Positions 10,926-34,835 are shown, numbered from the stretch's first letter. The stretch is DNA of 64,000 nt from a virus (IMGVR_UViG_2681813421_000002:1-64000); one strand, 5' to 3'. Numbers and translations are program-made. Notes: generated from the sequence alone by a model not told the origin.

Positions 10926-12623
10926 TCACTTTTTTTCGTTAACCTTGCCTGTCAGCATGTCGATAGCACCTTCTTTGGCACGAGTCAGACGCAGGCGGGT
11001 GAAGTAGTTTTCACCGTTGCGAGGATGTACTTCGTTGATGGCACTGCCCCAGAGAGTGGTACGGTTAACGAGAGACGGATTGGTTTCGTGAACGTAAGGG
11101 ATTGCTGGGACTGCATCACCAGCAATCAGACCGGCTTTACCGATGCCTTCGCCACGCCCATAGAAGAAGATGTCATCCAGCCCGAAGTCATATCCCTGTG
11201 CCAGGAATTGCTCACAGACAGGTTGCGGCACTTCGTAAATACGAATCGTGCCAAACAGGGTGCCGATGTACTGTACATACGGCGACTGAACGTAACCTGG
11301 TGCGATCTGGAAGTGCTGTGGAGGCAGAGAGCGCAGGAAGTTCGCGGCGTCACTACCAGCAAAGCCGCCACGAATACCCGTTGTCAGGGTACGATTTGCC
11401 ATTTCTTGAGACAGAGCGTTTACTGCGTGACGCAGGAGGCCGACCCAGGACTCATAGTTTTGAGCTTCCGGCAGAGCCACATCAAATTCACGACCATAAA
11501 CGGTATGGAATACCAGGGTGCGCAGACGCATGATGTCGGTTTCATGGGAGATCCAGTTACGCATCGCGGAGAACTGAAGTGCCGCTAATTCAAGGCCGTG
11601 CTCACGGCTTAAATCGGATGCGGACATTACCGTGTGTTCGGAAGCAAGTACGTACTGGGACGGACGAACTTCGTACTTACGCATAGCCTGGTTGATCACC
11701 GGAATCAGGCTTGGATTGCGCTCGATGTTAATTTCGACCTGAACAGCAATTTCAGTACCTACTGGCGGAGCCTGGGTAAATGTAATGTCAATGACACCAG
11801 TGTCATAGGCAACTTTGGCAGTCGCTGAGAAAGTATTACCTTTGCTGTCTTTAGCATTGAAATAAAGGTTGCCATCGCCGTCGTCAACTTTGGACGGTTT
11901 GCGGTTGATCAGCAGTTTGTTATAACCAGCGCGAAGCGGGCAGGATTGTCCCTCAAATTTTTGGATGTTGAACTGGAAGGTTTTGGTGCTGCCATCCCCT
12001 TTAGTGGAAAGGGCATACAGGCGCTTCATTTGAGAATAAACACCAGCTGACTGCATATTCAGTTCGTCACCTTGGTTGAAGGTGCCGAATTTTGTGCCTG
12101 CTACGTTGACCAGTTCATAAATATTTGACTCGTCACGATCACAAGGAACAAAAGTACAGGCATCACTGGTAGCAGCGCCCAGAGAAGCAGGCAGAATTAG
12201 AGCAGCATATTGAGCAACTTTCATTACGCCGTCAGAGCTACGCATTGATTGCGCGACAGACTCAAACATTGCCTTACCCGTGCCTTCATGGGTATCACTG
12301 GCACATTCAGTCATCAGGCGTTCAAGAGCCATGTGTGCGTTCGCCAGGATGTCACTTGCCGGGTAATGACCATGTTGACGTTTATACTCATGCAGAGACA
12401 TAGCCCACCCACCAGTGATCTGACGAGCGACCTCTGGATTTACGCCTTCAAACATAGGCACTTTCTGGATTGCTTTATCCAGGTTTTCCATCATTACTGC
12501 CTGGTCAGCAATCATGTTGCCTGCTGCATCGGTGGTCGGATCGACGGTCATAGCCATGACGCTTGCCGCCCGATTCATAATCTCGCGCTCGCGATCACGA
12601 GCTGGCTGAATGTTTTTATTCAC
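10926..12623 (-). CDS. Major virion structural protein, major capsid protein candidate (P1 gene 23-like position)
   Basis: 565-aa ORF heading the structural block, adjacent to sheath candidate; capsid versus tail not resolved from sequence alone. Confidence 0.4.
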   Translation of the reverse strand: MNKNIQPARDREREIMNRAASVMAMTVDPTTDAAGNMIADQAVMMENLDKAIQKVPMFEGVNPEVARQITGGWAMSLHEYKRQHGHYPASDILANAHMALERLMTECASDTHEGTGKAMFESVAQSMRSSDGVMKVAQYAALILPASLGAATSDACTFVPCDRDESNIYELVNVAGTKFGTFNQGDELNMQSAGVYSQMKRLYALSTKGDGSTKTFQFNIQKFEGQSCPLRAGYNKLLINRKPSKVDDGDGNLYFNAKDSKGNTFSATAKVAYDTGVIDITFTQAPPVGTEIAVQVEINIERNPSLIPVINQAMRKYEVRPSQYVLASEHTVMSASDLSREHGLELAALQFSAMRNWISHETDIMRLRTLVFHTVYGREFDVALPEAQNYESWVGLLRHAVNALSQEMANRTLTTGIRGGFAGSDAANFLRSLPPQHFQIAPGYVQSPYVQYIGTLFGTIRIYEVPQPVCEQFLAQGYDFGLDDIFFYGRGEGIGKAGLIAGDAVPAIPYVHETNPSLVNRTTLWGSAINEVHPRNGENYFTRLRLTRAKEGAIDMLTGKVNEKK

Positions 12624-12753: not shown

Positions 12754-12770
12754 TAGTTTTCTAACACAAA
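12754..12770 (+). promoter_or_regulatory. Operator-like motif TAGTTTTCTAACACAAA upstream of 12782 gene
   Basis: Member of dispersed TCTAACA-core motif family (12 or more copies in window), all intergenic. Confidence 0.5.
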
Positions 12771-12781
12771 TCATTAGAGTT

Positions 12782-17038: not shown

Positions 17039-17282
17039 ATGCCTTAATGGTGCCTAATTGGTGTTAATCTGGCACCGGTTAGGTGCTGTTATGGTGCAGT
17101 TTTGTATCTGGTTCCAATTTAGGGCTGATTTCGTGTTAAACAGGATGCAACAGAGGGCAAATTTAGAATGATTAGTGTTATACTTTTGCAAAGCATAATG
17201 ACTCCACTATAGAGCCAAAACCGCATCAATAAGACTTCTGTTTGGAGCCAGTTTGATACCAAAATAACACCGAGGAACGGAT

Positions 17283-17924
17283 ATGATTATATTGGTAGTC
17301 AGCCAAAAAGGTGGCTGTGGAAAATCAACCACAAGCGTAAACATCTGTGCGGAGCTTGCCCGCGCAAATAAGGATGTAGTGTTACTAGATGCAGACAAGC
17401 AAGGAACAGCTGCCCGCTGGGCAGCTGACCGTAACACGGCAGAGGTTTCTCCTGTAATTCATTGTGTCCAGAAGTTTGGTAATATTCGAGAAACACTTCT
17501 CGATCTGGATAAGCGTTATGAATTTGTAGTTGTTGATACAGCCGGGCGCGATAGCAAAGAGATGCGTACAGGCATAACCGCTGCAGATATTGTGTTGGTC
17601 CCATTCAGACCATCTCAACCAGATTTAGACACGCTGGCACACTTTGTTGAAGTGTTTGAAGAGGCTTTGGACCTGATGCCTAATCCTAGCATTAAGGCGT
17701 TCGCAGTCTTAACAATGGCCCCATCCAATCCGGTTGTGAATGAAACCAATGAGGCCAAAGAGTACCTGGCTGAATATCCGCAACTGAAGTTGCTGAAAAC
17801 CATCATTCGTGATCGTAAGGTTTACCGCGATTGCATGGCTGAAGGGAAGGGCGTTGTTGAGATGGACAACGGGAAAGCTAAAGGTGAAATCCAGATGTTG
17901 GTTAAGGAGTTATTAAGTGATTAA
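17283..17924 (+). CDS. parA: Small ParA/ParF-type partition ATPase
   Basis: Deviant Walker A KGGCGKST, 213 aa; ParA/MinD-like. Confidence 0.85.
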   Translation: MIILVVSQKGGCGKSTTSVNICAELARANKDVVLLDADKQGTAARWAADRNTAEVSPVIHCVQKFGNIRETLLDLDKRYEFVVVDTAGRDSKEMRTGITAADIVLVPFRPSQPDLDTLAHFVEVFEEALDLMPNPSIKAFAVLTMAPSNPVVNETNEAKEYLAEYPQLKLLKTIIRDRKVYRDCMAEGKGVVEMDNGKAKGEIQMLVKELLSD

Positions 17925-25053: not shown

Positions 25054-25821
25054 TCACCCCATAGATATCGAGGTTTCGGTAATAATACGTTTTGCGTCCA
25101 ACTCCCATGCTGTGATCACGTCTGTAATCACACTTATCGGCGCTTGTGTGGCATAAATACGCTCTTCTCCAATTGGTGCTGAAACATCCGTAAAGCCGAC
25201 TTCTTTGGCATCCTGTATCGAGCAAATCAGCGGGACCGGGACACGAACAAGGTGAGTGGTTGCTTCAAATTGTGTACCTGTCATCAGGCGAAGCCGTGCG
25301 CCCAGCGAATTACACATCAGACTCATGGTCGCTTTATCAGTTGCCATTAACGTAACGTCATACGTCAGAATGGCCTGGGTGTATTCCAGTTCTGCTAAAG
25401 GCATTCCGGTATCTGGTTCGCAAAAACTGGCTACTTTTTTGCGGTCAATCTGCTGATCATCGTTGATATAATTGATATCCATAGTGCGTGAGATATTGAC
25501 CAGGGGGAGAGCATCCCGGTTAATGTTCTGGTTTTCAGGTTTTCTCCCTTGCCCGGCATTTGCGCGACGAACTGCTTTAAGAAACTCGATCGCATTGTCG
25601 AAACGGGCCATATAGACACGCTCTGCTGGTGGACGATTCAGGAATGACGCAAAGCGTTTTTCTTCCGGCGCGGGGGCCACCAGTAAGATATCAGAAAAAA
25701 TGTTGCTGATTAGCGTCGCAAACGCGTTATCCACGTTTTCAAAGCCCGTGGTCTGGAATTTTCCTGTGCGTAAGGTTTGCCATTCACCGGTTCGCGCCAG
25801 GAGGGTTTTATTTGAAGTCAT
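25054..25821 (-). CDS. Baseplate/tail protein, unassigned
   Basis: 255-aa ORF in same block. Confidence 0.45.
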   Translation of the reverse strand: MTSNKTLLARTGEWQTLRTGKFQTTGFENVDNAFATLISNIFSDILLVAPAPEEKRFASFLNRPPAERVYMARFDNAIEFLKAVRRANAGQGRKPENQNINRDALPLVNISRTMDINYINDDQQIDRKKVASFCEPDTGMPLAELEYTQAILTYDVTLMATDKATMSLMCNSLGARLRLMTGTQFEATTHLVRVPVPLICSIQDAKEVGFTDVSAPIGEERIYATQAPISVITDVITAWELDAKRIITETSISMG

Positions 25822-26621
25822 TCGATCACTCCGTTTTGAGTCGTATCAAAATTTCTGGCAGGTATGCAGTAGTAAAGCGAACCAACATGCTGTGTGCCGT
25901 AGCTAAAAATACGGTGCACGTACCACCAGCGGCGGGCTACGCCGTTTACCATCTCTTCATTCCATTCAAGAATTGAGCCGACGGGGACGTTATTTGCTGC
26001 AATACGCAGAATCAGAACATCATCGGTTAAGCCATCCTGCTCACCGTCTGCGTCAATCGCATGGAAAGAGTCACGCCCGTCAGGGTTATCCAGCACATAA
26101 ACGATTTCAGGTTCCTGGTAAGTCAGTTCGCGTTGGTTGTTATCCAGTTCAGTGAATGACTCTTCTCCTGTTTCGTCGCTGACTACCCCATATGTGCCAA
26201 CATCTGGTCGATATAAGAGAGCCTGAAACGCGTCTGGGCTGGATTCAATAATCAGCATCCAGTCTGCGCGGATTTGGTCGTTAAAGGCTTTATGCCCGTT
26301 ATAGCGTGCTTTTAACTGTGGAGTCGGTTCTCTCCCAGCCAGGGAAGATGGAAGTATGGCTATATCTGATTCGCCAGCATCCGAAGTAAGGCCACCGTTG
26401 CTATCAGCAAAATTATCATGGCTATCAGCTTTGGCGGCGGGTTGCTCTTCCAGAATGCTGAATGAATCCGAACCGGTATTGCCATGTTCCGGCGCGCCTC
26501 CTGCATTCGCTTCAATCGGTGCTGGCGTTTCTCTCTGCGTGCTGTCATGTTCTGACTCCTTACTTGCCAGGTTTGCATCGTCAGCAAACCATTCGTCAAA
26601 ACGGCCCATAAGCATCCTCAA
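25818..26621 (-). CDS. Acidic tail/baseplate protein, unassigned
   Basis: 267 aa, Asp/Glu-rich N-terminal half; first gene of minus-strand block. Confidence 0.45.
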   Translation of the reverse strand: MRMLMGRFDEWFADDANLASKESEHDSTQRETPAPIEANAGGAPEHGNTGSDSFSILEEQPAAKADSHDNFADSNGGLTSDAGESDIAILPSSLAGREPTPQLKARYNGHKAFNDQIRADWMLIIESSPDAFQALLYRPDVGTYGVVSDETGEESFTELDNNQRELTYQEPEIVYVLDNPDGRDSFHAIDADGEQDGLTDDVLILRIAANNVPVGSILEWNEEMVNGVARRWWYVHRIFSYGTQHVGSLYYCIPARNFDTTQNGVIE

Positions 26622-26771
26622 AGGTCGATCTGTCAGGTATCGAAAGGAAGATTTTCGGGAGATTGTGATTTTGGATGAAGGAGGGGGAATTCATAAAATG
26701 CACTTGCGCACAGTGCAACAGTGCGCTATAGTTATGGCATTCGGTAATCATCACGGAGGATCAAATGACTA

Positions 26772-27074
26772 ATGACCAAAAAAATTAACATAAAGGATTT
26801 CAGGGATGCGTGGCTTGATGATTTTTTTGAATTTTCAACACCACATAGAAAGATACCTCCTGATATTCATATGACATTGTCACGGAAGTTGGACATTATC
26901 AATGCCGCAACTACCTGTAAGGATTTAAGATCACCACCAGGTAATCGGTATGAGGAACTGTCAGGGAAGCTAAATGGCTATTCATCAGTAAGGGTGAATA
27001 AGCAATATAGGTTAATTTTTAAGTGGGTTAACGGAAAGGCCGAGGACTTGTATCTCGACCCTCACAAATACTAA
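26772..27074 (+). CDS. higB: HigB-type toxin (plasmid killer protein family, RelE/ParE superfamily)
   Basis: C-terminal KDLRSPPGNRYEELSGKLNGYSSVRVNKQYRLIFKWVNG...DYH-like pattern characteristic of HigB killer proteins. Confidence 0.8.
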   Translation: MTKKINIKDFRDAWLDDFFEFSTPHRKIPPDIHMTLSRKLDIINAATTCKDLRSPPGNRYEELSGKLNGYSSVRVNKQYRLIFKWVNGKAEDLYLDPHKY

Positions 27075-27144
27075 AACAGATACCCGGTTACGGACCGGGT
27101 TCTGACCAGAGTCCACTTAATACGCACGCTAGTAAGGGCAAAAA

Positions 27145-27483
27145 ATGAAACAGGCAACCAGAAAACCGACGACCGTAGGTGATATCCTGCTGTACGAATA
27201 CCTGGAGCCGTTAGAGCTGAAGATCAACGAGTTAGCAGAAATACTTCATGTTCATCGTAACACCGTAAGTGCTCTTGTTAATAATAATCGTAAGCTAACG
27301 ATGGATATGGCATATCGCCTGGCAAAAGCATTCGATACTTCTGTAGATTTTTGGATTAATCTCCAGACCGCAGTAGACCTGTGGGAAGTCGAAAATGACA
27401 TGCGCGTTCAGGAAGAGTTAAGTCGTATCAATACTGCTGAAAAATTTATTTCTCAGCGGAACCTGAATAAAAAAGCAGCCTGA
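27145..27483 (+). CDS. higA: HigA antitoxin (XRE-family HTH)
   Basis: HTH LKINELAEILHVHRNTVSALVNN immediately downstream of higB; antidote-family architecture. Confidence 0.8.
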   Translation: MKQATRKPTTVGDILLYEYLEPLELKINELAEILHVHRNTVSALVNNNRKLTMDMAYRLAKAFDTSVDFWINLQTAVDLWEVENDMRVQEELSRINTAEKFISQRNLNKKAA

Positions 27484-27502
27484 TATAGTAAAACACATAC
27501 AA

Positions 27503-27529
27503 AAAGCCCACTTAACAAGTGGGCTTTCC
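27503..27529 (+). terminator. Hairpin after higA (candidate terminator)
   Basis: AAGCCCAC-ttaacaa-GTGGGCTT stem-loop followed by T-rich tract. Confidence 0.45.
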
Positions 27530-27899
27530 TTTGGAATTAATGAACATTAAAACTATCCGTACAGAACAAGATTATGAGGCCGCACTGCGTGCGGTAGAAC
27601 CGATGTTCGATAACGAACCGGAAACGAACACCCCGGAAGGTAATTTCTTGGAGGTTATGTGTCTTCTCATTGAGGAGTACGAGAAAAAACATTACCCAAT
27701 TGAGCCGCCATCACCTATTGAAGCCATTAAATCCCGTATGGAATAGCAAGGGTTGACCGTGAAGGATCTGGAACCGGCGATTGGTAAGTCAAATCGTGTT
27801 TACGAAGTGCTAAATGGGACACGAAATTTAACGTTACCTATGATTCGTCGTTTACATTCCCAGTTTGGCATTCCTCTTGAAAGCCTAGTTGGTGTTTAA
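27519..27899 (+). pseudogene. Orphan HigA/YgjM-type antitoxin interrupted by in-frame TAG at 27744-27746
   Basis: ORF 27519-27746 and the in-frame continuation 27747-27899 together resemble E. coli HigA(YgjM): N-terminal NIKTIRTEQDYEAAL domain and C-terminal HTH GLTVKDLEPAIGKSNRVYEVLNGTRNLTLPMIRRL; no partner toxin adjacent; start overlaps upstream terminator hairpin. Confidence 0.55.
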
Positions 27900-27959
27900 G
27901 TTTGGCAGTCTGGAGGGCCGATTTTACATAAAATCAAGGTTTAAATATTTGGTGATTAT

Positions 27960-28700
27960 ATGAGCACTGATTCATCAATAGAAAAGGAAAATGAAAAATC
28001 ATCCGCCCAAAATCTGATAGAAGATGCTGTAAAAGATAAGTTGTTTAATAAGGTTTTTGCCTACATTTTTATTTCATTTTTAATTTCTAACTGGCGAGAT
28101 ATATTTATATTGTTGAAGTCAAAAGATGATGTTATGTATACATTATCTATGGTGTTTGTTGGGGAAAAGATTCCATTATTTGGGAATGTTTTTGTACCCT
28201 CATTCGTAGCTCATTTTGTCTTGCCTTTTATTTATGGTGTTGTGGCTTCAATATTAGCCCCAATGTTAACTTTACTAATTTCTATGGTGACTGGCACAAT
28301 ATACGCTAAATTGAGAGAGATAGATAAAATTGAAGACAAAAAAGAACAAGTAAGAAAAATTAACAGAGACATTAATGATCTTACTAAGAAACGGAAAGAC
28401 GTTGAAGAGCGTCTTGAAAAAGAAAAAGAAGAACATGAATCATTAAAAAGAAAGGTAGAAGAAGTTAGGGAACAGATTGAATGTGTGGATAGCGATATCC
28501 GTCATGTTATTAAATTATATAGAGAGAAAGGTGAGAGCTTAAATTCGTTGGATGATTTTTATGAATTTTTTACTGCCGTGAAAAACTCATCTTTTCGTTC
28601 GGGTGATACAAATGACAGGGAGACACTTGAGGAGATTCTCTCAAAGCTTTCTGATTCACTTGAAAAAATTAAATGCGATGCTAATAAAAAGGTGGGATAA
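27960..28700 (+). CDS. Membrane protein with C-terminal coiled-coil, AT-rich accessory gene
   Basis: 246 aa; 2-3 hydrophobic helices (residues about 30-110) then Lys/Glu-rich heptad region; gene visibly more AT-rich than surroundings. Confidence 0.55.
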   Translation: MSTDSSIEKENEKSSAQNLIEDAVKDKLFNKVFAYIFISFLISNWRDIFILLKSKDDVMYTLSMVFVGEKIPLFGNVFVPSFVAHFVLPFIYGVVASILAPMLTLLISMVTGTIYAKLREIDKIEDKKEQVRKINRDINDLTKKRKDVEERLEKEKEEHESLKRKVEEVREQIECVDSDIRHVIKLYREKGESLNSLDDFYEFFTAVKNSSFRSGDTNDRETLEEILSKLSDSLEKIKCDANKKVG

Positions 28701-28711
28701 ACCCACCTTTG

Positions 28712-29902
28712 TTAATTTTTTATGTACTCCATGAACATTTTTTCAGCTTGTGCTGGTGGTGTTCCAGCCATGACAAGCGCATCAATGAACGCCTGCTTCT
28801 TCAGTGCGAACTGATCGGCAAGGCGTTGCTGAAGTTCCTTATTTTTCTGTTTCTCACGTTGCAAGGCCGCTTCTTTTGCAGCCGCCCGTTTTTTCTGTGC
28901 GTCTGACAACTTTCTGGCCCTGGTCAATTGGTCACGTAGCTTGTCGATATTGCCGTTGTCCTTTGCCAGTTTTGTACTTAAAGCTGCCTGGCGCTTCTGA
29001 TAGAGCCTCCATTCGCGTTTGGCGGCTTCAACGTTTGTTTTACTGCTTCGATTGCGATTAAACTCCTTCTCGTCTTCTTTTGAGAAGTGTTTGGTTGTAC
29101 GGCGGCGATCGTCACCAAATGCAATTTGCGTTGCAGCCTTTTGTAGCGCACGAGCAATACTCATTTGCCAACTGGCGGACTGTAACCGCGTCATTGAGTG
29201 GATCACGTGTTTACAGGCGACGCCTTGCAGCTTCGGGTTGCGAACTTTTGGATAGGCGTATTCTTTTGGCGGGGCCAGGGCAAAGTTACCCGCAGTAGCG
29301 ATGTAACGATACCAGTATTGATGACGACCACAGTCACAATCGAAAGACACTCGCCCGGCGCACAGTGATTTAGTGATTTTGAGAGCTGATTTATCGTCTT
29401 CTGCGATGTCATCGACCATCTGATCCCATTCTTCAAAGCGTATCCGGACGATATGGTGCTGGTGGACGGATATATCCGATGCTTCTACGCGGATATTAAT
29501 CACGTTGTGGCGAAGAGATACGGGGGTAGCTCTTTTGATACCAGATCCGTCATCCACGGCGTTATTTGCACGCTTAATATCGATTGCCTGGCTGGATGCC
29601 ACCAGCTGGGCGTATGTGATGCCAGCCGTCTTGCTGTCATATTTTTCGCGTGTTTTACTCCGTAGCTTTTCGAAACCTTTCAGGTCGTCTCGCGTGAAGA
29701 ACGTGCCGCCTTTTTTCTTCCCTAACTTGAGAATATCTTCGGCGGATTTGTTCCTCAGTCCACCTGGCGTCAGCGTCCGGTGAGCTTGTCGGCGCTTACG
29801 GGTTTGTTCTTTCCTGATAATCTCGAATATACGCGTGAAGTCCTTAGAGGACAGACCGTCAGTGATATAGCGCCCGTCCTGGTTTTTCAGGAAATCAGGC
29901 AT
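28712..29902 (-). CDS. SWIM-type zinc-finger protein with basic coiled-coil tail
   Basis: CDCGRHQYW...CKHVIH resembles SWIM CxCxnCxH finger; C-terminal 120 aa Lys/Arg/Gln-rich coiled coil. Confidence 0.5.
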   Translation of the reverse strand: MPDFLKNQDGRYITDGLSSKDFTRIFEIIRKEQTRKRRQAHRTLTPGGLRNKSAEDILKLGKKKGGTFFTRDDLKGFEKLRSKTREKYDSKTAGITYAQLVASSQAIDIKRANNAVDDGSGIKRATPVSLRHNVINIRVEASDISVHQHHIVRIRFEEWDQMVDDIAEDDKSALKITKSLCAGRVSFDCDCGRHQYWYRYIATAGNFALAPPKEYAYPKVRNPKLQGVACKHVIHSMTRLQSASWQMSIARALQKAATQIAFGDDRRRTTKHFSKEDEKEFNRNRSSKTNVEAAKREWRLYQKRQAALSTKLAKDNGNIDKLRDQLTRARKLSDAQKKRAAAKEAALQREKQKNKELQQRLADQFALKKQAFIDALVMAGTPPAQAEKMFMEYIKN

Positions 29903-30224
29903 TTTCTATCTCCGGTTCCGCGCTTGCGTAATCACGGATCTTGTTCCTCAGCCATGCCACATCAGGAAGAGTTAACGTGGTCCCTGCGGGCATTTCTTCC
30001 ATTTCTGACTCATGGCCCACCAGCACCCGGAATACCCAGCGCAAATCTGCATTGCCATACGCCCTGTAGGCTGCAAGGTCTGAACGATATACTTCATCAA
30101 TCTTTATCGTGTACTGGAAATTATCAGAGTGATACTCCGATACCCGCTTAATCATTTCCTGGTGAAACAGCGCACGAAAAATATCGTCTTCAATGTACCT
30201 ATCGTCGAGTCTGCTATAGCCCAT
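29895..30224 (-). CDS. Hypothetical protein, operon partner of SWIM protein
   Basis: 109-aa ORF whose stop overlaps SWIM gene start by 8 nt. Confidence 0.45.
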   Translation of the reverse strand: MGYSRLDDRYIEDDIFRALFHQEMIKRVSEYHSDNFQYTIKIDEVYRSDLAAYRAYGNADLRWVFRVLVGHESEMEEMPAGTTLTLPDVAWLRNKIRDYASAEPEIENA

Positions 30225-30417
30225 AACAAAGCCTCTCAGTCATAACCTGGTGGAAACTGTATGCAGGGTGTGAAATGCGAGAAACAGACAGGCCACCAGT
30301 TCAGGGGGATGTGGTTCATAAATCCCCTCACTGGTGACAAGTGACTTTCATTAATCTTTATGCGGGGGCCAGCTTCATTTGCTGGCATTAGATTAAAAAT
30401 TAAACGGAGTGAATGAC

Positions 30418-30552
30418 ATGGATGTTATCTTCGAATTATTAATGCTAATTGATCTGTTTATGAACGCTTCATTGACCACGCAAATACTGGCGTCAATATT
30501 TTTGTTACTCTTCTACCTGGTATTGAGGGAGTTAACAAAGCTACTAATGTGA
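30418..30552 (+). CDS. Small hydrophobic protein (44 aa), candidate membrane toxin
   Basis: ATG at 30418 with GGAG RBS 8 nt upstream; product MDVIFELLMLIDLFMNASLTTQILASIFLLLFYLVLRELTKLLM is a single predicted TM helix; below ORF-track cutoff. Confidence 0.3.
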   Translation: MDVIFELLMLIDLFMNASLTTQILASIFLLLFYLVLRELTKLLM

Positions 30553-31206
30553 TCAAAGTATCACGGTATCTTCATCAACTTCTTTCCCAGCCAGTGACTT
30601 TGGCTGGGAGGTGCCTGCTTTAACTTTTTCATGCCCAATAATGGACAGGAACGAAGCGAGTATGCCTGTTTTTTGCTCTTTCTCGACTGTACCGATCATC
30701 TGCTCTACGTAATCCGCACTGGCAACGTTGTGGTATACGGTCGCGTAGCAACACAGGACCATCAGAATATGTTCCGGCCTGATATCCTGCCAGTTCACCC
30801 GGTAGACTTCTTCTCCGTTACCGTTGTATTCGGTGTCAACGATGGAGTCAGGGATTTCGAAAGCACCTTTGTTATTTTGCGGCAGGGATAATAGCTTCTG
30901 GAGTTTTAACTCTCTGTATCTTTCCATCCCGACGATGATTGCTGCTCTGCCATCGGCATGACGGGTCTTGAGAGTCACCTGGCTTGCTCCGGTGCCAGCG
31001 GAGATCGTTGGCGTTATTTCGTCTACCAGTACCTTAAATTTGCTTTTCCGCAGGGCTGCTATAGCTGGAGGAATTTTTTGCTTTTGCTCCAATGCTGACG
31101 CGGGAAGGGGTTTTACTTCGTTAATAATGAGAGCACCGTCTTTCAGTATTGCAGTGAGCATTTGAGGCTTGCTGGTGGTCAGGCTGAATATTGCGATCTT
31201 TTCCAT
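30553..31206 (-). CDS. Hypothetical protein
   Basis: Track ORF starts at GTG 31248; ATG at 31206 with GGAGGA RBS preferred; 217 aa; stop abuts the stop of the small hydrophobic ORF (convergent). Confidence 0.5.
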   Translation of the reverse strand: MEKIAIFSLTTSKPQMLTAILKDGALIINEVKPLPASALEQKQKIPPAIAALRKSKFKVLVDEITPTISAGTGASQVTLKTRHADGRAAIIVGMERYRELKLQKLLSLPQNNKGAFEIPDSIVDTEYNGNGEEVYRVNWQDIRPEHILMVLCCYATVYHNVASADYVEQMIGTVEKEQKTGILASFLSIIGHEKVKAGTSQPKSLAGKEVDEDTVIL

Positions 31207-31474
31207 TGTCCTTCCTCCACGGATGACGGATACAAAAAAAGGCCGCACATGGCGGCCTGCTTTGGCGTTATGACTCCCTACCGCGCTTCGGCTGAAAGTT
31301 AATCGTCAAAAGAACCTTCAACGGGAGCCGTTAGCGCGATGGATTATGTGCAGTTTGTGATTTCCAAAATAGTGTCAACCACTTTTTGTGGATTTTATTT
31401 TTTGACCGAAATTTGGCCTAAATCATGTTGATGTAGTTGATTGTTTTTGTAACATAAAACTTCATTTTGTTTAC

Positions 31475-32098
31475 ATGAAGGACGGTGTAGTGAAGTTAAG
31501 GGTTTTAGGGACCGCGCTCGCGGCTATGTTGGGATGCGTATCTGTTAATACAGCCAATGCAACTGCGTTACCTGCACAATTCAGGGCAGGGCAGCAGGTT
31601 ATGAATAACGCTGGTGGGGATCATTCACAAGCGGCAATTATGGACTTTTGCAAGAGAGAGGGCATTCCATTACGGCCTGTTGGAACTCAGTTTATTGGTA
31701 AAACTGACTTTTGCGTTTTTGCATATACAGCATATCTGACGGACAAAGCTATAACAAAAACAGGTTATTCAACCAAAGATACTCTTTCCAGATTAAGTCA
31801 GGGATGGCAGCAATTCGAAGTGTATCGCCAGCAAGGATTAGGTGAGTTATTACAACCACTTTTTATGCTTGCGTTGGTGCCCGAGGGGCAGCAATTTTTG
31901 GTTAAAAAGGGAATGCTTCGCCAAAGTGATATTGCCGGGTTCGATAGCATGATGGCTTATGAGCGCAAACTAACCGAGCAGCGAAATAAAAAACCATCTG
32001 CTTCATGTGTGCAAAGTAAAACAGCAGAATACAGTGCAGTAGCCGGGCCTTTAGCCAAACAAATGGCAGAGCAATGGTGTAAAAAATACGGGCAATAA
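31475..32098 (+). CDS. Secreted/periplasmic protein, unknown function
   Basis: N-terminal signal peptide LGTALAAMLGCVSVNTANA; 207 aa. Confidence 0.5.
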   Translation: MKDGVVKLRVLGTALAAMLGCVSVNTANATALPAQFRAGQQVMNNAGGDHSQAAIMDFCKREGIPLRPVGTQFIGKTDFCVFAYTAYLTDKAITKTGYSTKDTLSRLSQGWQQFEVYRQQGLGELLQPLFMLALVPEGQQFLVKKGMLRQSDIAGFDSMMAYERKLTEQRNKKPSASCVQSKTAEYSAVAGPLAKQMAEQWCKKYGQ

Positions 32099-32118
32099 GT
32101 TACGCAGCGGAGGCAGAA

Positions 32119-32511
32119 TTGAAAAGATTGGCTATTGCTTTACTGGCGTCTTTCCCTTTGATCGCGAGCGCCGGAAATTTACAAGTTAAGTGCGGTCGGT
32201 TTGATATAAAAATCTATCCAGATGCCATATTTCTGAATGGGAATAAGGTTGATAACGCACACCGAAAAACTGAATCTGACGTAATGAGCTATGTGTTCCA
32301 GGAGTATGCGGAGATGGGGGGAACTTACACGCTGTACTCGCTGGATGTTCCTTCTCGCGGTGATATGACATTATCCCATCAATGGCAGAACGCCGATGGC
32401 GAAGCTCTGCGCGAGGTTAAAACAGAAAAATGTGGCACTTTCCATTCTTTTAAAGGGAAAGCGCCAAATGTTAAATCTGTGCTTGAAAAACAGCGCGCAG
32501 GTGAGCTTTAA
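32119..32511 (+). CDS. Secreted/periplasmic protein, unknown function
   Basis: TTG start with GGAGG RBS; signal peptide MKRLAIALLASFPLIASA; 130 aa. Confidence 0.5.
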   Translation: MKRLAIALLASFPLIASAGNLQVKCGRFDIKIYPDAIFLNGNKVDNAHRKTESDVMSYVFQEYAEMGGTYTLYSLDVPSRGDMTLSHQWQNADGEALREVKTEKCGTFHSFKGKAPNVKSVLEKQRAGEL

Positions 32512-33820: not shown

Positions 33821-34035
33821 CAGTGCACCTCCACGCAGTTCATTGGCAGATTCCAGTAATTGAGGATCTCCATCGCATCAAGAGTGAAGCGTGCGGCAAA
33901 AATGCAGGGTTCTTCAGGAAGGTATGAACGAGCTTCTGCTTCGGTTGCAGCCATGACGCAGATATACAGGTGTTTTTGGCAGGAATAGAAACGCCAGATA
34001 AATTCAGAATGAGTTGGGGTAGGGATAGTAGCCAT
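33820..34035 (-). CDS. Small protein coupled to antirepressor (Icd-like position)
   Basis: 71 aa; AAGGAGG RBS; stop overlaps Rha start (ATGA); P1 icd overlaps ant similarly. Confidence 0.45.
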   Translation of the reverse strand: MATIPTPTHSEFIWRFYSCQKHLYICVMAATEAEARSYLPEEPCIFAARFTLDAMEILNYWNLPMNCVEVH

Positions 34036-34039
34036 ATTG

Positions 34040-34327
34040 GCAGCCTCCTTTTGCTAATTTAAGGAGCTACCGCGTGAGGTTCCAATCTCAATGGCGGTAG
34101 CACTGACTGGGTTGGAACTACCGGCGCAAAAGGGAACCGGCCTGCCTTTCGGCAGCCCAGCCAGCACTACCATTGATCTCTGAGCTAAACGCTACGTATG
34201 GCTGTGCGATGGCATGACACAAGAAAAGACGCTTTCGGCGTCTGTGTCGCCTTTTGCATTATCCGGGGTTCCAATCCCGGCACCCGTTTTTCTAAGGTGC
34301 CGTAGAAATATACCCCACGATAATGCC
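34040..34327 (-). other. ORF-free structured region between two small immI-like ORFs
   Basis: Multiple mutually complementary GC-rich segments (AGCTACCGCG/CGCGGTAGC pairs etc.); no plausible ORF. Confidence 0.3.
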
Positions 34328-34495
34328 AGGGCGCAACAGTCAGTATTTTATGCTTTGGCGGATTTCTTCCGGGCTTGCTTGCAGGCGTAGGCCATTGCTT
34401 TAGCTTTCACTTCATCCAGCTTCCCGGTAATCACTTCTTTTCCGAGAGTGACAAACCAGTCATAGCAACCGCCAGTAATGTTCTTGATTTGAAAG
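34328..34495 (-). CDS. Small protein (55 aa)
   Basis: ATG at 34495 with GGGGGAG RBS; product MTVRYLNFQIKNITGGCYDWFVTLGKEVITGKLDEVKAKAMAYACKQARKKSAKA; below track cutoff. Confidence 0.4.
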
Positions 34496-34835
34496 TTGAG
34501 GTAGCGAACAGTCATTTTGACTCCCCCAGCGCGAATAAAGAATGCAGATTATCGCGTGAGTGGTGGACGACGAGTGATGGGAAAAGACTGTAGTTGTTCA
34601 TAGTGTAGTGACTCCTTGCTTTCGGAGCCGCCATCGACTGTTCCACGGTCTGGTGGCGGCGCAATAAAGGCTGGAACACCGTGAGTCAACGGGGGCTTTT
34701 CAGCCACCTATATTGCACCGCCATAGGTATGGCGGGGGCAATAATACGAAAAACTAAACAGTTTGTCTCAAAAAGTTGACCGGTGTGCCAATCGGTAGTG
34801 AATGTACATCGGAGAAATTTACAATTCAACTTAAA
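34496..34835 (-). ncRNA. Long structured 5' leader, candidate c4-like antisense regulatory RNA
   Basis: About 330 nt between operator motif and small ORF, several hairpins (GCCATACCTATGGCGG, GCCGCCACC...GGTGGCGGC); analogous to P1 immI where c4 RNA precedes icd-ant. Confidence 0.25.

Follow-up and report, generated by a model that had tools for sequence, protein, structure and literature searches.

Phage P1 and Escherichia phage D6, a plasmid prophage of the P1 family, offer the closest described parallels to the DNA considered here, namely positions 27,960 to 30,552 of a viral sequence of 64,000 nucleotides (nt) (IMGVR_UViG_2681813421_000002; this whole stretch is called the window in the following). 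In P1, the gene order 26-25-7-24-6-5 forms one uninterrupted minus-strand block behind the late promoter LP26. For the first gene of this block, an HHpred comparison identified P1 gp26 as the counterpart of T4 gp53 (98.9%; PMC9024508), and the cryo-electron microscopy (cryo-EM) model of the P1 baseplate includes gp26 in six copies. In the case of P1 gp25, mass spectrometry of purified virions detected two peptides and HHpred gave no match above 50%; its label ‘tail stability’ dates from older genetics, and the authors consider it perhaps structural, perhaps an assembly cofactor (PMC9024508). Another described system of interest is the defence system PD-λ-2, which consists of a HigB-like toxin, a HigA-peptidase fusion and a third accessory gene that is required for defence (PMC9519451). 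The population paper on D6-like plasmids does not discuss the present locus (PMC6799933).

Compared with D6, the region 26700-31400 of the window shows 96.6% nt identity, and matching sequence is present in 119 plasmid records; these come from E. coli, Salmonella and Shigella, and almost all are non-mobilizable and about 90 kb in size. By its sequence, the window is a D6-like, P1-family phage-plasmid. The gene map was obtained from the D6 annotation together with family scans of the window proteins. An earlier note on this DNA had described four open reading frames (ORFs), and all four stand at the positions given there: 27960-28700 (plus strand, 246 amino acids (aa)), 28712-29902 (minus strand, 396 aa), 29895-30224 (minus strand, 109 aa) and 30418-30552 (plus strand, 44 aa). 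The note had read them as one unit of cargo, and in this respect it has to be revised: two of the genes belong to the tail and baseplate, and the block is not one defence cluster. We propose that the block 27960-30552 consists of three different things, namely the morphogenesis genes 26 and 25, the end of a cargo island that closes with the gene orf73, and the small gene orf77; together with the roles suggested below for orf73 and orf77, this is an explanation that we favour with moderate confidence. Most of what is found here is familiar biology (P1 genes 25, 26 and mat plus HigBA), and cargo is confined to two separate hotspots, one at the junction of genes 7 and 25 (7|25) and one at that of genes 26 and mat (26|mat). 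New here are one uncharacterised, fast-diversifying prophage cargo family (orf73) and two leads, the metal site of gp25 and the late 44-aa gene.

The homologies and the synteny of the minus-strand pair were established directly. The 396-aa protein (28712-29902, minus strand) is a homologue of P1 gp25, with 56.7% identity over residues 1-334 (E 3e-113, tblastn); it matches phrog_1722 ‘tail protein’ (E 1e-195 over residues 2-395), and a Pfam scan of it gave no match. Its 302 homologues are mostly named ‘phage tail protein’, and the contigs of nearly all of them measure about 80-100 kb and resemble P1-like plasmids of many different Enterobacterales. The 109-aa protein (29895-30224, minus strand) is a homologue of P1 gp26, a T4 gp53-like baseplate wedge protein: it aligns to P1 gp26 with E 6e-23 and matches phrog_1269 ‘baseplate wedge subunit’ (E 2e-36). 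Directly against Pfam Phage_gp53 it reached E 0.053, below the cut-off, and the link to gp53 runs via P1 gp26. As the earlier note had seen, the two genes overlap: the end of gene 26 and the start of gene 25 share 8 nt (ATGCCTGA), and because of this overlap they are probably translationally coupled. Altogether, the window shows the same adjacent, overlapping 26-25 pair as P1, with protein identities of 57% (gp25) and 41% (gp26); in the case of D6, the gp25 homologue is 98% identical to orf74, and orf75 is the counterpart of gene 26.

The 26-25 order is common to the window, P1, D6 and Acinetobacter phage ABMM1, whose gp25-like protein (26% identity in the family alignment) adjoins the wedge gene. 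Genes 25 and 26 are kept across more than 300 P1-like elements and are also found in Acinetobacter and Xanthomonas phages. Among D6-like plasmids they show 96-99% DNA identity and no turnover, and their guanine-cytosine (GC) contents of 0.49 and 0.48 are backbone-like. Because of the P1 homology, the synteny and the lack of turnover among the D6-like plasmids, genes 25 and 26 are classified by comparison as backbone late morphogenesis genes and not as cargo. The earlier note had denied the pair any structural or replication role, and this does not hold: both proteins have P1 tail or baseplate homologues, the very finding that the note had said would count against it, one of them (gp26) characterised as a component of the cryo-EM baseplate. 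Its expectation of cargo with turnover that fits no nameable system survives for the 246-aa gene and fails for genes 25 and 26. Two differences from P1 are visible around the pair. Firstly, gene 7 follows gene 25 after 3 nt in P1, whereas in the window (gene 7 at 25818-26621, minus strand) a 2.1-kb island on the opposite strand lies between them. Secondly, whereas the divergent pmgL occupies this place in P1, the window has mat upstream of gene 26 and on its strand. This homologue of P1 ‘maturation control’ (30553-31206, minus strand; 33% identity to P1 Mat, E 5e-40) matches phrog_1837 (E 5e-94), and D6 orf78 is annotated as ‘similar to P1 gene mat’; it is the gene which the earlier note had left as an unidentified convergent neighbour.

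The SWIM-like motif and the basic coiled coil that had been read from the 396-aa protein are both borne out. The motif C189-x-C191…C230-x-H232 (CxC-x38-CxH) is invariant in 57 homologues, including P1 gp25 and the distant protein of ABMM1. In the AlphaFold (AF2) model of gp25 (predicted local distance difference test (pLDDT) 84, predicted template modelling score (pTM) 0.74), the CxC ends a β-strand and the CxH starts a helix, and the last 130 residues, which hold 34 K+R and 17 D+E (net charge about +17), form long helices. In the SWIM family (PF04434, CxCxnCxH) the same arrangement of CxC and CxH is expected, and the local sequence GVACKHVIH resembles the usual SWIM helix. The classical SWIM spacer is shorter than the 38 residues found here. 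The Pfam model is not significant: PF04434 gave no match for the gp25 of the window, matched 3 of the 57 homologues with a best E of 2.8, and did not match a construct from which the loop had been deleted. Comparison of gp25 with solved structures returned nothing beyond coiled coils, and a sequence search of solved structures with the gp25 and orf73 family profiles returned coiled-coil noise only. Among predicted viral structures (BFVD, searched with Foldseek), six matches reached E ≤ 0.001; these six and the one ranked next include two phage proteins that UniProt names ‘SWIM-type domain-containing’, from Achromobacter phage Motura (E 1.9e-4) and BcepSauron (E 1e-3), besides small unnamed proteins of jumbo and sipho-type phages. 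Thus, sequence conservation and model together point to a conserved SWIM-like metal site that gp25 probably carries, and formal membership in PF04434 is unproven. By analogy with the P1 label, gene 25 may encode a zinc-site and coiled-coil protein for stable tails. The motif belongs to the conserved late 26-25 assembly pair and not to cargo. A literature search found no paper linking SWIM motifs to P1 gp25.

As an observation on the same family, Xanthomonas phage Rb1 (PQ569993.1) contains at 33822-34409 a gp25-like core with 36% identity over residues 72-261. This core underlies a feature labelled ‘transcriptional regulator MvaT’, which may be a misannotated tail-assembly gene.

Between genes 7 and 25, the P1 operon is interrupted by an island of about 2.1 kb on the opposite strand (26772-28700), which contains higB-higA, orf72 and orf73. 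Its last gene, orf73 (27960-28700, plus strand; phrog_8191, labelled function unknown), was correctly described before as an AT-rich membrane and coiled-coil protein. Its GC content is 0.320, compared with 0.476 for the whole window, 0.348 for orf77, 0.383 for higB and 0.48-0.50 for genes 7, 25, 26 and mat. Hydropathy places two hydrophobic segments at residues 32-52 and about 73-116 (Kyte-Doolittle means above 1.4-2.0), followed by a K/E-rich stretch in which residues 117-190 hold 23 K+R and 22 D+E; the low-confidence AlphaFold model shows one long helix over residues 81-190. Because K/R residues number 3 on the N-side and 5 on the C-side of the two membrane segments, compared with 3 in the loop, the charge counts suggest that both ends are cytoplasmic, including the coiled coil and the C-terminal domain. 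In the D6-like group, small polar residues (S97, P101, T104, S108, T111, Y115) form a conserved stripe along the second membrane helix, and in the model this helix continues straight into the coiled coil. This suggests, on the model, an oligomer with its membrane helices packed along the polar stripe. Between the convergent orf73 and gene 25 lies a GC-rich hairpin (28688-28710, both strands; AAAGGTGGG-ATAAA-CCCACCTTT) with a T-run after it on the plus strand and an A-run before it, which is a T-run on the minus strand; from these features it is likely a two-way terminator.

Allelic variation at orf73 is strong, and its site is fixed. A word-based search of 5.8 billion proteins returned 12 relatives, and all contexts examined were the 7|25 junction of D6-like elements. 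The allele found in D6 is a much more remote one. Between the allele types (window, D6 and the plasmids L008, L004 and L005/L003/L009) protein identity is 39-44%, synonymous divergence (dS) is saturated (>1) and the ratio of nonsynonymous to synonymous divergence (dN/dS) is 0.14-0.65, whereas the flanking genes across the same types are 97-100% identical at the DNA level. All alleles have a GC content of 0.29-0.32. The allele of the window is rare: a version of at least 80% identity occurs in 1 of 156 matching plasmid records, and the exact gene in 1 of 5,426 complete E. coli genomes, where it is carried by pGF60-C. Compared with L025, the closest allele in the plasmid collection (82.5% aa identity), ω is 0.13 in residues 1-122, which make up the membrane domain, and 0.89 in the rest of the protein; for gene 25, ω is 0.05. 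The gene is intact where its neighbour orf72 is broken (window, pGF60-C) or largely deleted (L008). It is absent from P1.

With a profile of the N-terminal domain, a search of 1.84 billion representative proteins widened the family to 35 members, most of them 200-270 aa long and with the same layout. Residues N44, P89, G93 and P101 are invariant family-wide, and a weaker motif of the C-terminal domain is visible by eye. The remote members gave no Pfam, NCBIfam or consistent PADLOC match, and their sources call them ‘hypothetical’. For orf73 and its relatives, no PADLOC family was matched by more than 1 of 22 members; the weak matches (LmuB, JetC, PbeC, one SAVED_TM and, in a relative, one 2TM effector) are not shared among members and were rejected as compositional. 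Against PHROGs, orf73 showed weak similarity to Rz-like spanin and other coiled-coil families. The members occupy varied places. Those in P2-like Klebsiella prophages stand by themselves on the opposite strand, with the tail S region on one side and baseplate V on the other; a lambdoid prophage has one, likewise on the opposite strand, where its replication region gives way to that of late regulation. Others come immediately behind ogr where a P2-like prophage ends, behind dmt in a P1-like plasmid of Nissabacter, or behind a TacAT pair in P1-like plasmids of Citrobacter/Salmonella. Outside phages, one shares a genomic island with a methylase and H-NS, and another occupies a chromosomal site. 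Every member examined is AT-rich for its locus (GC 0.33-0.44 compared with 0.48-0.56). P2 orf30 was considered as a homologue of the P2-like prophage member and rejected; the sole match of that member in the phage collection was D6 orf73.

A particular arrangement, in which a HigB of the PF09907 type and a helix-turn-helix (HTH) protein precede orf73, recurs within the family. It is found again between genes 7 and 25 in the Klebsiella-type D6-like element L026. In addition, the N-terminal half of orf73 has matches on 55 large plasmids of Klebsiella, none of them a phage-plasmid. The only one of these inspected, L024 (Klebsiella pneumoniae IncFIB, NZ_CP132738.1, 4201-5411), carries HigB-HTH-orf73 with orf73 cut by IS903B and with IS66 upstream; the probable source of its trio is a D6-like phage-plasmid of Klebsiella, of which L026 is an example. 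Compared with the E. coli type, the three proteins of the L024 trio show 26%, 29% and 39-50% identity, and in the case of L026 orf73 is 33% identical and the flanking tail proteins 68-82%. Because of these low identities between the E. coli and Klebsiella types, the adjacency of the three genes is, on sequence divergence, old. In the E. coli D6-like elements the toxin-antitoxin (TA) genes are 99-100% identical and the orf73 alleles 36-50%, and the two do not co-vary.

P22 SieA, λ SieB/RexB and the accessory genes of P2 are examples of exclusion or abortive-infection (Abi) proteins, or of opposite-strand cargo of temperate phages. Like these, orf73 is a single small AT-rich membrane gene, variable and on the opposite strand in a late block; in the searches made, it showed no sequence relationship to any of them. 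The conserved membrane module, the fast-changing cytoplasmic domain, the cargo positions in three kinds of temperate phage and the balanced deep alleles at one site argue for a candidate role as a lysogen-expressed membrane exclusion or Abi protein, a reading that we hold tentatively, its chances being nearly balanced. Mechanistically, orf73 would be a horizontally acquired prophage ‘moron’ whose product is anchored in the membrane by two conserved segments and extends through a coiled coil into a helical C-terminal domain that evolves fast. It would be expressed in the lysogen and act alone, with the variable C-terminal part recognising a cue from an incoming phage and the oligomerised membrane part blocking entry or depolarising the cell.

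Several points weigh against the proposed explanation. Firstly, no promoter was found for orf73: there is one weak σ70-like match (27816-27844), and the scan gave 8 matches in total compared with 9.5 expected by chance. Secondly, orf73 matched no defence family in PADLOC, Pfam or NCBIfam, where the matches were weak coiled-coil or single-member ones only. Thirdly, relaxed constraint, in place of diversifying selection, could account for the ω of 0.89 in the C-terminal half. Fourthly, the AlphaFold model (pLDDT 63, pTM 0.25) is too poor for a fold search, so that the suggested topology is based on hydropathy and charge counts. It is important to add that the old and recurrent adjacency to a PD-λ-2-like HigB/HigA could mean that orf73 does not act alone. 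A further difficulty concerns the split operon itself. A matrix derived from the eight annotated P1 late promoters found no late promoter ahead of genes 26, 7 and mat, and terminator-like minus-strand hairpins with T-runs occur at 28710-28688 and 27529-27501, in and at the end of the island. The proposed explanation therefore does not account for the transcription of genes 7-24-6-5 past the island.

The adjacency leads to the alternative that orf73 is the third part of a TA-derived module related to PD-λ-2, made up of a HigB-like toxin, a HigA-like regulator and an accessory membrane sensor or executor, of which the window would hold a remnant or a version rewired to an incoming PF05015 HigBA. 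The present TA pair of the island, at its other end, consists of higB (26772-27074, plus strand), a RelE-like toxin (Pfam HigB-like_toxin PF05015, E 4e-35) that matches D6 orf70, and higA (27145-27483, plus strand), an antitoxin of the Xre type (HTH_3, E 7e-11; phrog_1381 ‘plasmid antitoxin with HTH domain’, E 5e-32). By these domain matches, a HigB/RelE-fold toxin is followed by an Xre-HTH antitoxin, which is a type II HigBA arrangement. Next to it lies orf72 (27540-27899, plus strand), an orphan HigA-like antitoxin pseudogene: the codon at 27744-27746 is CAG in D6 and L004 and a nonsense TAG in the window, and at the identical locus of pGF60-C PGAP calls a pseudogene with ‘internal stop’. 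The gene is mostly deleted in L008 and intact in D6, L004 and L025. In L004, L005 and L025, an intact orf72 of 119 aa lies directly after a different toxin, the PF09907 HigB, and there is no second antitoxin. The most parsimonious account of these comparisons is a replacement of the older toxin gene by the PF05015 higBA pair, after which orf72 remained as a decaying orphan.

The resemblance to PD-λ-2 is substantial in the relatives. There, the PF09907 HigB matches PD-Lambda-2_A (E 3e-42), its HTH partner matches the N-terminus of PD-Lambda-2_B (E 7e-43), and a third gene follows, as does the third PD-λ-2 gene on which defence depends. The order of HigB, an HTH protein of 119 or 139 aa and orf73 is kept in L004, L005, L025, L026 and L024, and the identities between the E. 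coli-type and Klebsiella-type trios, only 26%, 29% and 33-50% when L026 is included, speak for an old arrangement. Moreover, co-transcription of orf72 and orf73 would be compatible with the search for plus-strand terminators, which found none between them. The differences are likewise clear. The window lacks component A (PADLOC gave no match for its HigB, and an A-like gene was seen only in relatives such as L004 and L024), and its component B is a pseudogene that matches only positions 1-119 of the 402-position PD-Lambda-2_B model, so without the peptidase domain. The third gene encodes a membrane and coiled-coil protein and not a P4-antitoxin-like one, and neither orf73 nor any of 21 relatives matched PD-Lambda-2_C. 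Against a working module, furthermore, orf73 has stayed intact, with an ω of 0.13 in its membrane domain, where the A-like toxin is gone and orf72 is nonsense-mutated or deleted. Distant members stand alone without any TA pair, and the near-identical TA genes beside deeply diverged orf73 alleles in the E. coli D6-like elements speak against co-variation. We therefore consider this module unlikely as an account of orf73.

A further reading gives orf73 a function unrelated to other phages, as a lytic-cycle membrane factor (for lysis timing or as an assembly site), as a gene for host physiology or plasmid maintenance, or as selfish cargo. Its position inside the late morphogenesis region, the weak similarity to Rz-like spanin and coiled-coil PHROGs, the lack of a match in defence databases and the near-neutral C-terminal half relative to the closest allele would all fit such a function. 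On the other hand, the gene runs on the strand opposite to the late genes and is bounded by a terminator. It is AT-rich and horizontally acquired in every context, that is in three types of temperate phage, a genomic island and a chromosomal site; its deeply diverged alleles stay open under strong purifying selection on the membrane domain; and P1 does without it, hence it is not needed for this type of virion. On this evidence we regard such a function as improbable, and the exclusion or Abi reading of orf73 is the one that we retain as a best guess.

In the case of the 44-aa ORF, orf77 (30418-30552, plus strand; phrog_38362), the earlier note had described a small, toxin-like ORF with a strong ribosome-binding site (RBS) that converges stop-to-stop on its neighbour. 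The small hydrophobic gene, its RBS (GGAG at 30406-30409, 8 nt before the ATG) and the convergence, in which its stop codon abuts that of mat (30553), are all confirmed, and the toxin-like role in the lysogen is weakened by a P1-type late promoter. The hydrophobic stretch covers about residues 17-36. At 90% identity or more, orf77 occurs in 93 D6-like plasmid records, in none of which it is annotated, and the ORF is confined to D6-like elements. A second allele (MNIFNKLIDLLNKFISASLTQQVSTSVFLLLFYLVLRELTKLLM), found in L003, L009, L025 and pGF60-C, has the same length and frame and is heavily diverged in its first 70 nt. Our first thought, that the 5' half of orf77 had been lost in plasmids with a second HigBA, was rejected, as the alignment shows the second allele instead. 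Because this diverged allele keeps length and frame, there is good evidence, from sequence comparison, that orf77 is a real coding gene.

The promoter in question, the only recognisable one for orf77, lies at 30339-30357 on the plus strand and points at this gene. It consists of the -22 box AAGTGACTT, a 4-nt spacer and the -10 element TAATCT, and thus shares with the late, Lpa-dependent promoters of P1 the same 9-nt -22 box, the 4-nt spacer and the TANNNT form of the -10 element. Its box and the three preceding bases (gac) are identical to P1 LPmat, in spacing and in the form of the -10 element it agrees with each of the eight P1 late promoters that are annotated, and with the matrix built from these eight it ranks among the top three of 127,964 window positions. 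In addition, the 22 nt at 30337-30358 (gacAAGTGACTT-tcat-TAATCT) are perfectly conserved between the two orf77 alleles, whereas the surroundings are diverged. Near the predicted 5' end of the late transcript, a hairpin (30368-30386, plus strand; GCCAGC-TTCATTT-GCTGGC) has a counterpart in the diverged allele of L003, L009 and L025, where the CCAGC/GCTGG core is retained, the stem is extended (CCAGCTC/GAGCTGG) and the loop differs. The promoter differs from P1 in its setting: in the window it precedes a 44-aa ORF, and the equivalent place in P1 has pmgL, which was rejected as a counterpart of orf77 for lack of any similarity.

The consensus match and the conservation between alleles make it most likely that orf77 is part of a late, Lpa-dependent transcript. 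Its product may serve as a small membrane protein of the late phase, or the relevant effect may be late antisense transcription into the 3' end of mat; in either case the action would belong to the late lytic phase, as opposed to the lysogen. A type I-like membrane toxin, kept in check by an antisense RNA such as one from the convergent 3' end of mat, would be suggested by the small, hydrophobic and AT-rich gene with one predicted helix and a good RBS, by its stop-to-stop convergence on mat, and by its location at the other cargo hotspot, in which a HigBA pair is present in some elements and absent from others. Because of the conserved late promoter, which should be silent in lysogens, this is less likely; the net charge of orf77 is -2 with an acidic N-terminus, most type I toxins being net positive, no Rfam antisense or toxin family was found at the locus, and the ORF is confined to one group of elements. 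Altogether we judge a lysogen toxin very improbable. As for the block as a whole, the reading of 27960-30552 as defence, exclusion or Abi cargo, invited by the adjoining TA module, the nearby immunity locus, the partial AT-richness and a gp25 without Pfam match or assigned role even in P1, is hardly credible given that genes 25 and 26 have backbone GC, sit in the P1 late tail/baseplate operon, include the gene for a protein modelled in the P1 baseplate, and persist without turnover in D6-like plasmids as well as in the P1-like elements and the more distant phages named above.

Some observations were made in passing on the same promoter type and on the neighbourhood. The other two top matches of the late-promoter matrix lie at 12758-12776 (minus strand), just upstream of a 565-aa ORF (10926-12623) that is probably the major capsid gene, and at 17166-17184 (plus strand), about 100 nt upstream of a 213-aa ORF at 17283. 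At 26763-26771 the box TAGTCATTT occurs exactly; it lacks a -10 element, overlaps with the start of higB and was treated as chance. The 26|mat junction (30225-30552) is the second cargo hotspot, with an extra HigBA of 93+93 aa and the other orf77 allele in L003, L009, L025 and L029. Plasmid pGF60-C shares orf73 with the window and has the other arrangement at 26|mat; because of this, the 7|25 and 26|mat hotspots assort independently. Next to mat, at 31475-32511, two proteins (207 and 130 aa) with signal-peptide-like N-termini occupy the place of a simB-like gene in D6, and other D6-like elements have different genes there (273-280 aa, or 202+130 aa), which looks like a third variable spot. In the immunity locus beside icd/ant, Rfam detected the C4 antisense RNA (34090-34177, minus strand, 76.7 bits) and isrK (34222-34300, minus strand, 59.4 bits), and a second C4-like copy (34649-34728, minus strand) scored 40.2 bits, below the gathering score of 45.

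In conclusion, the annotation of this locus can be corrected: in P1/D6-like phage-plasmids, the protein with the SWIM motif and the small protein encoded beside it are products of core tail/baseplate genes. If the zinc site is true, gp25 would be a zinc-dependent tail or baseplate assembly factor, which would give the first biochemical handle on this P1 gene. In its boldest form, which we find doubtful, the proposal would be that orf73 founds a single-gene membrane anti-phage family of P1/D6-like, P2-like and lambdoid phages of Enterobacterales, pairing a membrane effector with a diversifying cytoplasmic sensor and having begun as the output of a PD-λ-2-type HigB/HigA, with a zinc-dependent gp25 alongside. 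If true, this would add to TA-based defence a new architecture of three parts, the third of which can also function by itself. Among E. coli, Salmonella and Shigella from food animals and patients, D6-like plasmids are frequent, and such a gene, if the proposed function is true, could influence which phages, therapeutic ones among them, are able to infect these hosts.

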